From the IMG/VR virus record IMGVR_UViG_3300045988_159010: a stretch of 64,000 bases of DNA. One strand, given 5' to 3'. Origin of the DNA: a virus. A program made the position numbers and the translations under genes. Within the stretch, counting starts at the first letter, position 1. Each line of letters opens with the position of its first letter. The notes below the pieces were generated by a model that saw nothing but the letters and a program-made list of their open reading frames with translations, was not told where the DNA came from and did not search any database. Below are positions 1 through 64,000 of the stretch, piece after piece.

Positions 1-764
1 CCCATAGGAGTTAAAGTTTCTTTTAATTTGAATTTATTTTTTTCCATCATACCTTTAATATAGGGATTTTGAGGATTTTTTAAACCTTGATTGATAAAAT
101 AACGAGTTTCATAAGGTCTACTATCTACCATATCTCCGATTAACCCAAGAGCCACTAAATCTAAATACTTGTTTGAATAATTAGTATTAATAATTTCATC
201 AATAGCATTACAAAATTTATATACTATTGCAACACCTGATAGTGCTTTATTAGGGTAATTGTCTAATTGATTATTAATCGTACAAGCATAAGGAGATATT
301 TTATCTACTTCGTGATGGTCTAAAATTAATATATCAATACCTTTATCATAAAGCACTTTATGTTCATTATACTAATTACTTCCAGCATCTGGGATTATTA
401 CTAACTTAGTATCTTCTGGAATAGTATCTAAAATAATACCATGAGTTTTCTGCGTATGGACTCTATAATAAACATTATTAGATACATAATAAGGAAATAA
501 ATTATATAAATAATTAATTAATAACGCTGATGATGTATAACCATCACAATCAGCATCTACCTAAATAAAAATTTTATTATTCTATTTAATATGTTTTAAT
601 AATAGTTTAATTCCCTATTCCATGTTATTTAATAATTTATTAGGATATATATCGGATTGCGTGGGATTAAGAAAATGCTAAATATCTTCAGTCTTAATCC
701 CACGGTTATTCATTATTGTTTCTAATGGAGTTTTTTGTGTATCATTAATTAATTTATAATTCAT
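1..764 (-). CDS. DHH-family phosphoesterase (RecJ-like exonuclease), truncated at window edge; contains 5 in-frame TAG codons
   Basis: Start ATG at 762-764 with AAGGAGT RBS. Translation shows the DHH motifs DADCDGYTS and LDHHE. The only internal stops are TAG, and the frame is preserved across them. Confidence 0.5.
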
Positions 765-775
765 ATACTTACTCC

Positions 776-1879
776 TTATATAATTATTCGGTCTTTATAT
801 AATTTAAGAAATAATTCCGGCCCTTCATCAGTTGGACTATCCTTATAATTAGTAAGCATATTCTTATCAAAAATAAAAGATATATTAAAATAATTTCCAT
901 ATTTAGCTTTTATTTTTAATAAGTTATTCTTTAAATGATAAAATTCTTCATCACCTATTTTTTGAAACTGTCTATCAAAAGCAATAATAATATCTTTGGC
1001 ACCAACTTGTTCTAATAACTTCATTTGCTGCGCTGATACACTACTGCCGCAACAAGCTACTGTTATATCATTCTCAAAACCAAAATAACTTTGATATTGT
1101 AGAGTAGATTTTTCACCTTCAAATATTATTGCTTTTCCTAATCTACTTATATTTGCTTTACTATTATTTAAATTATATAAATTCATACCAAGAGGATGGG
1201 AATAAAGAATTTTATTAATTTTAAGTGGTCTATATTTACCATATAATAATGCTTCTTCTTTCCCTAATACTCTTCCTCTTAGGCCTATAAAATCTCCATC
1301 TATATTAAAATGAGGAATTGTAATTGCATCGCCGCCAGGGTAATAACCAATTATTGCTTGATCTATTGCTTCTTGACTTATTCCTTCTTTTAACCATGGA
1401 GTTATTTTTACTCGATAGTTAAATCTACTTAAAATTTGGCTATCATAAATTTTTAATTCAACTTTAGAATTTAAATTTTCTTCAGGATTATTTTTATCAT
1501 AATTAGCTAAAAATTTCCAATCTTCTAAACCTAAATCTTCAGCCTCTTGTTCTACAGAACCAGCAATACCAAAATAATTAGCTATCCATCTAACTGCATC
1601 ATTTAAATCATATTCTTTATTAGATTGAATATTAGCAACTTTAATTACTAATTCAAATATATCAAAGGTATTATCACAGCCAGTATAGCATTTAAATAAT
1701 TGACTATTTGAATAGTAATAAAGTTTTTTACTTCCTACTCCTGGTTCATTATGACAAATGGTTTCAGAAAGAATACCGAATTCACTATATTCAGGATTGC
1801 CGCCCCAAATATTTAGTAATTCAAAAATATTATCTAAAGTTAAATTATTTTTTATTTCTATTTTATCATAATTAATCAT
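776..1879 (-). CDS. DNA primase (DnaG-like; CHC2 zinc finger plus TOPRIM)
   Basis: 367-aa intact ORF. Zn-finger motif CHNEPG...FKCYTGC and TOPRIM motif EGEKS are present. Confidence 0.8.
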   Translation of the reverse strand: MINYDKIEIKNNLTLDNIFELLNIWGGNPEYSEFGILSETICHNEPGVGSKKLYYYSNSQLFKCYTGCDNTFDIFELVIKVANIQSNKEYDLNDAVRWIANYFGIAGSVEQEAEDLGLEDWKFLANYDKNNPEENLNSKVELKIYDSQILSRFNYRVKITPWLKEGISQEAIDQAIIGYYPGGDAITIPHFNIDGDFIGLRGRVLGKEEALLYGKYRPLKINKILYSHPLGMNLYNLNNSKANISRLGKAIIFEGEKSTLQYQSYFGFENDITVACCGSSVSAQQMKLLEQVGAKDIIIAFDRQFQKIGDEEFYHLKNNLLKIKAKYGNYFNISFIFDKNMLTNYKDSPTDEGPELFLKLYKDRIII

Positions 1880-1883
1880 TTTG

Positions 1884-2051
1884 GCATAATTAATTCATTA
1901 AATAAATCTTTATTAACATAATCAAGAGTAAAATCAAGATTAATATTTCCATGATCTATTTTTAGAGGATAATCTTCTGCTTTTACTTCAATTTTATATC
2001 CGTATACAAATTTACCGGTAATTACATTTTTATAAATAATTAAATCTTTCA
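1884..2051 (-). CDS. small hypothetical protein (about 55 aa)
   Basis: ORF MKDLIIYKNVITGKF... overlaps TAATG with the upstream gene stop and ends at TGA overlapping the primase start. Confidence 0.25.
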
Positions 2052-2234
2052 TTAAAATGTAATTACATTAACGCAAGTGCCTTTAACACCAAATTCTTCA
2101 TTAACTACTTTAATAAGGTATTCCTTTGGATGTTTCTTTGCAAAGTCACCCTTAGCAGTCTTTAAATACATTGCTGCCATTTCTTTCGGCATTTTATATT
2201 CAATAGTTCCATTCATAATCTTTTTTTCAAACAT
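2052..2234 (-). CDS. hypothetical protein (60 aa)
   Basis: ORF present in the track; it ends in TAA and is translationally coupled to the downstream ORF. Confidence 0.3.
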   Translation of the reverse strand: MFEKKIMNGTIEYKMPKEMAAMYLKTAKGDFAKKHPKEYLIKVVNEEFGVKGTCVNVITF

Positions 2235-2506
2235 AATTTAATCTCCTTAAAATACAATAAAATTATTTTTCATTGCTAATGGTTTAATGATATTTTTTAT
2301 AATAAATTGTCCAGCTTTATCATCATAAAAATGTTTATCACAATATACTATATCCTATCGTTTCATGCAACTACCAGTATAATTAAAAGGATTAATAAAA
2401 ATGACACTTATATTTTCATTCTGATAATTTAAGAACTATACTGGCCGAGGAACGTCTTTATTATCTATACGTATAATATAACATTTGTTTATTTTATTCA
2501 TGATTT

Positions 2507-61850: not shown

Positions 61851-61910
61851 ATCTTTTGGTAATTCACTTATTTTATTATCAATAGCCTAAATAGTATCAT
61901 TTTTTATAAT

Positions 61911-62303
61911 CTATAAGTCATTTATCACATCTAATAAATAGTCTTCTGGTTCTATTCCTCGAATATTAAGAACGATAATACTATCATTAGCTGATGCCGC
62001 AAAATCTAATAACTTAATTTTATTATCTTGAATTATATAGTTTATATTTTTAGTCATTAATATACCATTAAAAAATATATTTAAATCTTCAGGATTTTCA
62101 ACAATAAAAGGAAAAGTAAATGTTGTATCTCCTTCTTGGGCAATGAAAGAATATTTATAAGGAAGGTCATCTTCTTTATTTATAATGTATATTTCATCAT
62201 TGTTTACTTTTCCTTGTTTCACCATTTGATTATAAATTTTCCTAGATGGAACTTTATTTATAACTAAAGAATCTAATAATTTTTCATTGTTTTTTATTTC
62301 CAT
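61911..62303 (-). CDS. hypothetical protein (130 aa)
   Basis: Intact ORF. Confidence 0.3.
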   Translation of the reverse strand: MEIKNNEKLLDSLVINKVPSRKIYNQMVKQGKVNNDEIYIINKEDDLPYKYSFIAQEGDTTFTFPFIVENPEDLNIFFNGILMTKNINYIIQDNKIKLLDFAASANDSIIVLNIRGIEPEDYLLDVINDL

Positions 62304-62318
62304 CTATTATTCTCCTTA

Positions 62319-63311
62319 TTAACTCCAAGCAACAGGTACGATAGTCCAAGTTCCAGTTTTAGATGTACGATATTTAAAAGTACCAGATGAAGATGTGTCA
62401 ATCCATAATAAAGGTGCTGTGCCTGACGCGGGAGTAGATGAGCCAATATAGATTGGAAAAGTAGTAGATGTGCCAACTATTGAAGGTTTACTATCATCAA
62501 CGTATTTTTTTGTAGCAACATCTTCGTTTGCTGAAGGAGTATAAGTACTATACATAGTAATCTTACTATCAGTAGCCATTGTGTTTGTTTTATTTAAAAA
62601 CATAATATTAGAAGTATTTGATGGTAATGTGGCAACTAAATCATTAATTTCTTTAAGAGTCTTTTCTTTCACAGTATTTATTTCATTAATTGATGAAGTT
62701 TTTATAGCTTGTATTTGTTTAATTGCATCTTCGGCCTCTTTGCCAAAATCAATTGCTGCAGCTCCTTCTATACCCATTACAGTAAGATAATCACCAGCTT
62801 CGGCTGTGAATCCAGCAAGAGTAATTACTTTACCAGATACTGTGTAGTTGTCTGTTTCTTTCATCATTACACCATTATAATAGAGAGTAAGGGCGCTACT
62901 GTCTTCAAAATCAAATGGAATAGTAAATGTAGACTAACCTGCTGTTGCAGTAAATGTAAATCTATTTACTATATGGTCATTAGCGGCAACCTAGTCATCT
63001 ACATATTTTTTATTTGCGGCTTCTGTATCGGCTGTTGGAGTTTTTAAATTAGTAATTGTTTTATTATTAATATTAATATTACCAGTCATAGTACCGCCAG
63101 CAAGAGGTAAATATTTTCCATTTATAGTATCTAAGTCATTAATAAAAACCAGATTTCCTACTTTAGTAGCTCCATCACCTATTTTTATTTTCTTTAAATC
63201 ATCATATATAATAATTTCGCCTTTTAAGGGGACAAAATTAGTTGCTTTATCCCAATTAGCTTTTGTATCATGCTTCTAAATCATACGGCCTTGGAATGTA
63301 TTATTTGCCAT
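62319..63311 (-). CDS. tail-fibre protein with KKYVDD collar motif and shared C-terminal module; 3 in-frame TAG
   Basis: Begins MANNTFQGRMI. Contains ANKKYVDD-TAG-VAAND. C-terminus LLWIDTSSSGTFKYRTSKTGTWTIVPVAWS. Confidence 0.4.
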
Positions 63312-63464
63312 TATATTTCCTCCTTAAACAAAAATATAGGGAAATAAATATCTTGAAAATAGTTCAAGATATTTATTTCCCTATATTAAATATCTTTCTC
63401 AATCATCTATTTTCAAAAGAGTAAAGATTATAATAAATAAGTTATCAATTTCAAACTTATCCTG

Positions 63465-64000
63465 TCCATTTAGTCCAAACGGCTGAATTAGTATTTTTTA
63501 CATAAATAAATCCATCACTAATACCAATTGTACTATTATCTATTTTTACGCCGCCAAGAGTAGAAGTTGAGGCAGTTGGTAATGTGTATTCAGATATGTC
63601 TGTTTTTAAAGCATATTTAGATAAATCTGGTTTATTTAATAAATCAGCATAATTACCTGACTAGCTGCTAGATGGTAAACTATTTATAATAGCTCGACAC
63701 ATTGCATCTTTGCTGATTGCTTCTAAAGTAGTAGGTTTTTCTACTATCTTAGACCATAAGATATTTGCATCAGCTATAATTTCTCCTGTTGCATATAATC
63801 TACCATTTTCATCAATACCGATACCAGTTCCGCCGCCCATAACTATACCTAATGTATTTTCACCAGCTATTGGAGCATGATAATTATTCATGACATCATT
63901 TATATACGTTTTAGCCTTTTTTAAAGTTTCATTATCCTAATTATTTACATAATTAAATAGTCCTTGAAATGTATTAGGCCCTTTAATTGTTCCATCTTCT
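63465..64000 (-). CDS. partial tail-associated protein (N-terminus beyond window); at least 1 in-frame TAG
   Basis: Track ORF 63661-63891 continues in frame through TAG to a stop near 63465. Confidence 0.25.

Follow-up and report, generated by a model that had tools for sequence, protein, structure and literature searches.

Recoding of phages to genetic code 15, in which the amber stop codon TAG is read as glutamine (Gln), is already described (Borges et al.; Peters et al.). Among TAG-recoded gut phages, Borges et al. (bioRxiv 10.1101/2021.08.26.457843) distinguished the Lak, crAss-like, Garnet, Amethyst, Agate and Topaz clades, reported clades mixing codes 11, 15 and 4 as well as variably recoded replication genes, and predicted that suppressor tRNAs of non-canonical structure escape detection; genome sizes are ~154 kb for Agate and ~200 kb for Jade and Sapphire. 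In crAss-like phages the translation of TAG as Gln has been shown by liquid chromatography with tandem mass spectrometry (LC-MS/MS; Peters et al., PMC9523058), and phAss-1 of the 'Phassvirus' group (Babkin et al., PMC10607447) is a gut phage of ~136 kb with TAG in 41 open reading frames (ORFs) and with suppressor tRNA genes. The present analysis concerns a stretch of 64,000 nucleotides from the IMG/VR virus record IMGVR_UViG_3300045988_159010 (the window), the in-frame TAG codons of its genes and the tRNA with anticodon CUA (tRNA-CUA) that would read them. The window is, with a probability of about 0.93, part of a tailed phage of ~190 kb that would infect Clostridia of the gut or rumen and uses genetic code 15, with TAG encoding Gln and TAA and TGA serving as stops.

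With the phages of the first of these surveys, which has reportedly been published in Nat Microbiol in 2022, this phage shares the apparent reassignment of TAG to Gln, a phage-encoded tRNA-CUA, recoded structural and lysis genes, variable replication genes, membership of a mixed-code clade, a large genome and an origin in the animal gut or rumen. Unlike in those phages, no release factor 2 (RF2) was seen within the 64-kb window, and the suppressor tRNA is atypical and linked to a homing endonuclease. Its compatibility with the Agate, Jade and Sapphire clades is confined to genome size, habitat and mixed codes. The crAss-like phages have the same reassignment, but belong to a different phage order, with Bacteroidota hosts and genomes of ~100 kb. 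phAss-1 and its group are likewise gut phages with TAG-containing ORFs and suppressor tRNAs, but no nucleotide similarity came up in the GenBank phage collection. Megablast of window positions 1-25000 against GenBank phages returned no matches, and tblastn with the GyrA-like protein against the same phages gave a best identity of at most 40%; the phage adds a large, Clostridia-type lineage without a close relative among the GenBank phage records searched. Beyond the known recoding, it brings a suppressor locus with three alleles and a tRNA-Gln gene that carries an insert.

ORFs of at least 100 amino acids account for 63% of the window in the standard code and for 66% when TGA is read as sense, compared with 90% when TAG is read as sense, which bears out the gain in coding density by which the initial annotation had proposed to check its claim of amber reassignment. 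The window has a G+C content of 29% and a GC skew that is negative over its whole length, and its plausible genes are all encoded on the minus strand. When the ORFs of this strand are tiled in a simple way with TAA and TGA as the only stops, 74 genes result, which make up 88% of the window, and 160 in-frame TAGs are spread over 42 of these, constituting 25% of all Gln codons. The earlier claim that many genes are interrupted by TAG alone was reproduced with all of its coordinates: the DnaB-like helicase has TAGs at 4001, 3503, 3233 and 2810 (amino acids 13, 179, 269 and 410), three GIY-YIG endonuclease genes have a TAG directly after YIG, the endolysin gene is broken by two TAGs, and the 3.5 kb fibre gene, to which about 15 TAGs had been ascribed, contains 15 (Table 1). 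Single Pfam domain matches cover TAGs in the case of DnaB_C, PhoH, Amidase_2, GIY-YIG (three genes), Radical_SAM and the glycine-rich domain ALK_LTK_GRD. More than half of the phage's genes are fragmented under translation table 11, and table 15 is therefore needed for annotation. The genes end in TAA (n = 59) or TGA (n = 14), frequently with further in-frame stops, and one ORF exits the end of the window. That neither codon occurs internally, as had also been claimed, is partly true by construction; no positive evidence of TAA or TGA read-through was found in the window genes, none of which requires it, and only three pairs of same-frame neighbouring genes are parted by a single TAA.

For the identity of the encoded residue, 34 related phage loci were translated in six frames, all window proteins were aligned to them, and the codon opposite each window TAG was tabulated. 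Relatives with at least 90% identity have 193 TAGs, 20 Gln codons (15 CAA, 5 CAG), one AAT (asparagine) and one TGG (tryptophan) at these positions. As CAA is the commonest partner in the tabulation against the 34 loci and lies two mutational steps from TAG, mutational adjacency alone fails as an explanation. In relatives below 70% identity the partners are Gln (149), lysine (63), TAG (49), glutamate (40), aspartate (37) and asparagine (37), with others fewer; Gln accounts for 149 of 478 residues (31%), in agreement with a Gln-Gln share of 28% at ordinary CAA/CAG sites. When the residues opposite TAG were scored with a substitution table built from those alignments, Gln (log-likelihood -1165) was ahead of the next-best residue by about 290 units, with lysine at -1454, glutamate at -1472, and tyrosine, tryptophan, cysteine and phenylalanine below -2000. 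Relatives without TAG recoding have Gln opposite window TAGs in 84 of 260 alignments, and at the sites conserved with respect to these relatives the residue is Gln in six of eight cases and lysine and arginine in one each, a spectrum like that of ordinary CAA/CAG sites. The six Gln-conserved sites include three helicase sites and the YIG-Q sites. Among relatives below 70% identity, the helicase TAGs are opposite Gln in 11/11, 8/11, 8/9 and 8/8 cases, and among the non-TAG-recoded relatives only, the three helicase sites that qualified as conserved are Gln in 10/10, 7/8 and 7/7. Similarly, TAG343 of the PhoH protein corresponds to the DEAQN glutamine of PDB 3b85 and to Q in 5/5 relatives. In the GIY-YIG proteins encoded at 8118..9116 (amino acid 260) and 14024..14713 (amino acid 19), relatives below 70% identity have, respectively, 14 Gln, five TAG and three leucine, and 13 Gln, ten TAG, three leucine and one lysine, while Gln or TAG occurs at nine of 13 aligned sites of the tail-fibre-like protein in relatives (75% identity). 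The family alignments, the conserved sites, the PhoH DEAQN motif and the tRNA-CUA in the window support the code 15-like assignment of the initial annotation, with TAG as a predicted Gln codon of the window genes.

The putative decoder of these codons is an atypical tRNA-CUA, here termed type C, in the tRNA cluster of the window. ARAGORN reported four tRNAs in the window and no suppressor, and the Rfam tRNA model added two more; the tRNA-CUA was missed by ARAGORN because of its atypical D and T loops, an instance of how suppressor tRNAs can escape standard tRNA finders. Its anticodon loop, CUCUAAA, belongs to the sole credible CUA anticodon arm in the window. The tRNA has a T-loop of sequence GGCAGCA, a D-loop without GG, a U.C mismatch at 1-72, a G73 discriminator and an encoded CCA, and its cloverleaf is conserved over four divergent copies from other viral contigs (95% of cells paired, nine compensatory pairs). 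The identity set by which Escherichia coli glutaminyl-tRNA synthetase (GlnRS) recognises tRNA-Gln comprises a weak 1-72 pair, G73, G2-C71, G10, U35 and A37, and CUA differs from the Gln anticodon CUG by a single base. The features U1.C72, G2-C71, G10, U35, A37 and G73 of the type C tRNA agree with this set and would suit a tRNA charged with Gln. The E. coli suppressor supE, a tRNA-Gln with anticodon CUA, has the anticodon and the GlnRS identity elements in common with the phage suppressor. Unlike supE, however, the latter has a body unrelated to tRNA-Gln, A-U instead of G-C at 3-70 and non-canonical D and T loops, and the host of the phage may lack GlnRS and use the glutamyl-tRNA synthetase (GluRS)/GatCAB route. 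During infection the tRNA-CUA would be transcribed, charged with Gln via host GlnRS or GluRS/GatCAB and would win over host release factor 1 at UAG, so that the TAG-containing genes (fibres, lysin, helicase, PhoH, radical SAM enzymes and homing endonucleases) would become translatable.

As had been noted from the outset, TAG-free genes coexist with TAG-rich ones. Thirty-two genes (7332 codons) are without TAG, where ~62 would be expected at a uniform rate, and TAG use is heterogeneous among genes (chi2 = 196, df 73, p = 3e-13). One group of TAG-free genes, to which the ligase, RNase H and both topoisomerase subunits belong among others, is native and AT-rich and has CAA as its Gln codon. Both topoisomerase genes are free of TAG in all alignable TAG-recoded relatives, and those of the four TGA-recoded relatives are free of in-frame TGA; the one in-frame TGA observed is that of the GyrB-like gene of L021, which does not belong to these four. 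The 32 genes, including both topoisomerase subunits, would be translatable in the unmodified host. This would fit a published proposal in which recoding acts as a gate for part of the phage programme. The conserved avoidance of the recoded codon by the topoisomerases provides a concrete gene set for examining recoding as a possible timer, and a model in which early genes are TAG-free is only partly supported.

A further, mostly TAG-free block of higher GC content contains accessory genes (Table 1), among them two metallophosphoesterases, NADAR and GNAT. Its flotillin, MVP-like and DUF2828/DUF7788 genes have a G+C content of 39-44% and use CAG in place of CAA for nearly all Gln, the opposite of the rest of the phage, which suggests that they are of different origin or under different constraints. 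A conserved intergenic motif, reading ATATTATATAATATATATAGAAA on the minus strand and often including TTGAAA 17 nt upstream of TATAAT, occurs at about 20 sites (for example 7120-7179, 30672-30725, 35400-35453, 45509-45568 and 47342-47395) ahead of protein genes as well as RNA genes and probably represents the main promoter type of the phage. Within the accessory block, the genes at 35779-36843, 35457-35687, 33817-35355, 33245-33406 and 30398-30670 are each preceded by a promoter-like motif of their own. The TTGAAA-N17-TATAAT-like motif showed no association with TAG-free status (Fisher p = 0.69).

The assignment to a large phage of Clostridia draws on the gene content and on relatives. The window encodes a DnaB-like helicase, GyrA- and GyrB-like topoisomerase subunits, an ATP-dependent ligase, RNase H, PhoH, ThyX, a CHAP/Amidase_2 endolysin, fibre-like proteins, and three GIY-YIG and two HNH endonucleases, and its tRNA cluster includes ROOL and RAGATH-33 RNAs; no terminase was found in the 64 kb. 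Related IMG/VR contigs are 80-190 kb in length, and in one of these (IMGVR_UViG_3300045988_152007; 188,474 bp) the order of the window's genes is circularly permuted, an indication that the complete genome (also OIXL01000006.1) measures ~188 kb. On the basis of ORF coverage, relatives with a common gene backbone fall into TAG-sense, standard-code and TGA-sense groups. In the TGA-sense relatives (L016-L018 and L028) in-frame TGA is mostly opposite tryptophan (12/28), and these appear to use TGA as tryptophan (code 4). Close relatives encode a tRNA-CUA at the same locus as the window. The origin of recoding should be well suited to study in a family with codes 11, 15 and 4 on a common backbone. 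Among bacteria, the flotillin has its closest homologues (64-68% identity) in metagenome-assembled genomes (MAGs) of Oscillospiraceae/Clostridiales from the gut of ruminants, and the contigs concerned are fully open in the standard code. A walled host of the Firmicutes type is implied by the presence of an SLH-domain protein and an endolysin. Contigs 99% identical to the phage (CAMELE010000010.1, CAMELE010000001.1 and JALFQD010000332.1) occur within MAGs labelled 'uncultured Mollicutes bacterium' and 'Clostridium sp.', and are probably phage sequences mis-binned into bacterial genomes.

The fragmentation of the genes in the standard code could also be read as the result of inactivating mutations or of sequencing or assembly errors, as in the pseudogenes of a decaying (pro)phage. 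This is extremely improbable given that TAG alone is affected and never TAA or TGA, that relatives with at least 90% identity, although assembled independently, retain 193 of 215 TAGs and have Gln codons at nearly all of the changed ones, that domains run in frame over the TAGs, and that a cognate tRNA-CUA is present. Moreover, when the window was compared with relatives that are 85-100% identical, the synonymous share among differing codons was 81% before the first TAG of a gene, 77% after it and 78% in TAG-free genes, so that purifying selection continues past the TAG. TAG could also be a leaky stop without any reassignment, passed at low efficiency by near-cognate host tRNAs and acting as a translational attenuator. 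A slight enrichment of TAGs in the N-terminal half of genes (mean relative position 0.43, Kolmogorov-Smirnov p = 0.005) would suit such a gate, but single genes contain 9 to 15 TAGs, with which low-efficiency read-through would give essentially no full-length protein. With a dedicated CUA tRNA encoded and a quarter of all Gln codons being TAG, attenuation is a very unlikely account. No weak termination context was detected at the in-frame TAGs, where the following base (A 43%, T 22%) is distributed as after sense codons, CAA/CAG included (p = 0.35), in comparison to T in 47% of cases after true stops.

If TAG is a sense codon, it might still specify pyrrolysine, tyrosine, leucine, serine, lysine, glutamate or tryptophan. 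ARAGORN labels the CUA tRNAs of relatives 'tRNA-Pyl', its label for CUA, the window tRNA resembles tRNA-Pyl in having neither G18G19 nor the T-loop consensus, and lysine and glutamate are the next most frequent partners of TAG; the log-likelihoods nevertheless place Gln well above lysine and glutamate and far above tyrosine, leucine, serine and tryptophan, and both the conserved sites, which resemble ordinary CAA/CAG sites, and the PhoH DEAQN motif favour Gln, leaving little room for another residue. The architecture of tRNA-Pyl comprises a 6-bp anticodon stem, a variable loop of 3 nt, a single base separating the acceptor stem from the D stem, and a small D loop. The window tRNA, with a 5-bp anticodon stem, a 4-nt variable loop, a 2-nt acceptor-D spacing and an 8-nt D loop, was rejected as a tRNA-Pyl, and no PylS or PylBCD domains were found in the window by Pfam searches of about 60 of its 74 proteins, which also counts against pyrrolysine. 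It is scarcely credible, finally, that the sequence is cellular, or that it belongs to a host whose own code has TAG as Gln. The near-identical contigs binned as Mollicutes and Clostridium would favour this, but the genes present are typical of a phage (fibres, endolysin, homing endonucleases, tRNA array, ROOL RNA), the related sequences are viral contigs in IMG/VR with lengths of 80-190 kb, one of them (~188 kb) apparently circularly permuted, three codes are mixed within the family, and the Clostridia contigs with flotillin homologues are open in the standard code. The endolysin argues, in addition, against a wall-less Mollicutes host.

Several observations weigh against a code 15 phage in which recoding is brought about by the tRNA-CUA and times gene expression. 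The reassignment in this phage is a prediction from sequence, and a few TAG sites are opposite conserved lysine or arginine in relatives, as are some ordinary Gln codons. The D and T loops of the tRNA-CUA are unusual, and its charging with Gln is deduced from sequence features and alignments only. The same Pfam searches of about 60 of the 74 proteins revealed neither a release factor nor an aminoacyl-tRNA synthetase nor any other code-change gene in the window, the window being 64 kb of a genome of which the remaining ~125 kb lies outside. The early/late model does not hold cleanly, as TAG is present in the genes for the helicase, PhoH, ThyX and a DHH protein resembling RecJ, and the promoter-like motif family was seen by eye before eight TAG-free and nine TAG-containing genes alike.

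The suppressor locus is variable: phages with 93-98% identity elsewhere carry here one of three tRNA-CUA alleles that are unrelated to one another. Read from the sequences, all three share G73 and lack a Watson-Crick pair at 1-72. At this locus, the close relatives L033, L050, L051 and L140 have a tRNA-CUA of 72 nt that looks canonical (type A). In contig _158846, as in the window, a 916-nt cassette (42799-43714), with edges derived from BLAST comparison against L050 and L051, stands exactly in place of the type A tRNA; it is made up of a GIY-YIG endonuclease gene (4 TAGs) and the type C tRNA-CUA, and homology beside it restarts at the 3' end of the tRNA. At L032:451-1503, a third, unrelated tRNA-CUA is followed by a different GIY-YIG gene. 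Two of the three alleles therefore adjoin different GIY-YIG homing endonuclease genes, the ORFs of which contain TAG. The SegB protein of phage T4, a GIY-YIG homing endonuclease encoded in the tRNA cluster, is said to have been linked to the replacement of neighbouring tRNA alleles, reportedly by Brok-Volchanskaya et al. in 2008. The window resembles T4 in having a free-standing GIY-YIG gene within a phage tRNA cluster, but unlike SegB its endonuclease is linked to a code-changing suppressor tRNA, and its own ORF requires TAG suppression.

The window's tRNA-Gln(UUG) gene is interrupted by a 66-nt insert (45409-45474) that parts U35 from G36, while relatives at 98% identity are without it and an uninterrupted tRNA-Gln gene is found at L050:16801-16875. 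The insert is itself tRNA-shaped: its acceptor stem of 7 bp is followed by U8, a D arm, a T arm (loop UUCAAAU), a discriminator and CCA, and it has a stub where the anticodon arm would be. An exon-anchored degenerate scan of metagenomes identified eight further tRNA-Gln(UUG) genes (L133-L140) with inserts at the same site, including three very different sequences in three different tRNA-Gln bodies. The acceptor and T stems of the inserts are 100% paired, with compensatory changes in eight of 12 pairs. A covariance model made from the inserts detected two other phage tRNA arrays in which tRNA(UAU) carries a 73-nt tRNA-shaped insert between U36 and A37. An exact search of viral contigs with the 3' part (28 nt) of the tRNA-Gln insert gave no match. 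As the exons always build a perfect cloverleaf, removal of the inserts is suggested. This could proceed by an RNase P cut at the 5' edge and 3'-end processing at the CCA edge, after which the 3'-OH and 5'-phosphate ends of the exons would be joined by an RNA ligase similar to T4 Rnl1. The tRNA-shaped insert may represent an undescribed kind of tRNA intron; a search of the full-text literature found nothing relevant on tRNA-shaped introns in phage tRNAs, which is no proof of novelty. If the inserts are indeed a new intron type that is spliced in this way, Gln decoding (CAA/CAG versus TAG) could depend on phage functions. That the code-change apparatus is itself mobile and in conflict, as the exchangeable suppressor alleles and the tRNA-shaped inserts in tRNA-Gln might indicate, is a tentative proposition that we consider rather unlikely. 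The endonuclease-linked alleles and the inserts nonetheless provide testable leads on the evolution of the decoding machinery.

The tRNA-Leu(UAA) gene of the same cluster contains a 738-nt intron between U34 and A35, the classic tRNA-Leu intron site, with an ORF (42031-42477) for an HTH/HNH protein, and is intact at L033:1309-1394. Group I-like traits of this intron are the U34|A35 site, a 5' exon ending in U, an intron ending in G and the HNH ORF inside, but it gave no match to the Rfam Intron_gpI model even at E <= 10 and was not recognised as group I. In the relative L051, the tRNA-Tyr has a 441-nt insertion at the anticodon.

Table 1. Location of the features discussed, in window coordinates or, where prefixed, in those of related loci
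Feature	Coordinates	Strand	Basis and remarks
DnaB-like helicase	2507..4039	-	Pfam DnaB_C match at 207-472 covers two of four TAGs
GIY-YIG endonuclease, N-terminal coiled-coil region	8118..9116	-	Pfam; 8 TAGs, including YIG-X-A
TAG-free replication block	9787..17501	-	Pfam; interrupted by TAG-containing GIY-YIG gene 14024-14713
ATP-dependent ligase	9787-10995	-	Pfam; TAG-free
GyrA/ParC-like	11369-13750	-	Pfam; TAG-free
GIY-YIG endonuclease	14024..14713	-	Pfam; 3 TAGs, including YIG-X-S
GyrB-like	14910-16619	-	Pfam; TAG-free
RNase H	17025-17501	-	Pfam; TAG-free
Endolysin (CHAP + Amidase_2)	19287..20579	-	2 TAGs; Pfam Amidase_2 match at 202-336 covers TAG320
PIN-PhoH ATPase	20632..21888	-	4 TAGs; Pfam PhoH match at 219-414 covers TAG343
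Radical SAM / SPASM-type protein	23638..24936	-	Pfam Radical_SAM + Fer4_12; 5 TAGs, kept in relatives
Accessory block, mostly TAG-free, higher GC	25341..36843	-	Pfam, codon table, composition
Flotillin	25341-26411	-	TAG-free; CAG:CAA 22:1
MVP-like (Vault_3 + MVP_shoulder)	30755-33238	-	TAG-free; CAG:CAA 28:1
DUF2828/DUF7788	33817-35355	-	TAG-free; CAG:CAA 12:1
SLH-domain protein	35779-36843	-	Pfam
Tail-fibre-like protein, 1182 aa	37840..41388	-	15 in-frame TAGs
RAGATH-33 RNA	41745-41857	-	135 bits; 13 nt downstream of tRNA-Leu exon 2 end (41871)
tRNA-Leu(UAA)	exon 1 42694-42661, intron 42660-41923, exon 2 41922-41871	-	
Amber-suppressor tRNA, anticodon CUA, atypical type C allele	42798..42869	-	Rfam tRNA 38.9 bits (gathering score 29)
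GIY-YIG homing endonuclease	42875..43633	-	Pfam GIY-YIG; 4 TAGs, one at YIG-X-S
ROOL RNA, full-length	44606-45198	-	324 bits; TTGAAA-N17-TATAAT promoter-like motif upstream
tRNA-Gln(UUG), interrupted	45371..45508	-	Rfam tRNA 50.4 bits with 69-nt insertion
TAG-rich block: radical-SAM/glycosyltransferase cluster and fibre-like proteins	47392..63891	-	
Glycine-rich Laminin_G_3 protein, fibre-like	58033-60594	-	12 TAGs
Type A tRNA-CUA	L050:18531-18605; L033:1135-1209		
tRNA(UAU) inserts	L035:6603-6675; L134:5485-5557		Insert covariance model

In most genes of the TAG-rich block at the far end of the window, TAG accounts for 30-100% of Gln codons. The part of this block at 47392-57016 (minus strand; 20-25% G+C) encodes several radical SAM/SPASM-like proteins and glycosyltransferases of families 2 and 8. 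In the gene at 55004-57016, the radical SAM CxxxCxxC motif lies 5' of the first ATG in the same TAG-containing frame, and the start codon is uncertain. All genes of the cluster are TAG-rich and adjoin the fibre genes, and their products may modify the fibres or the cell surface.

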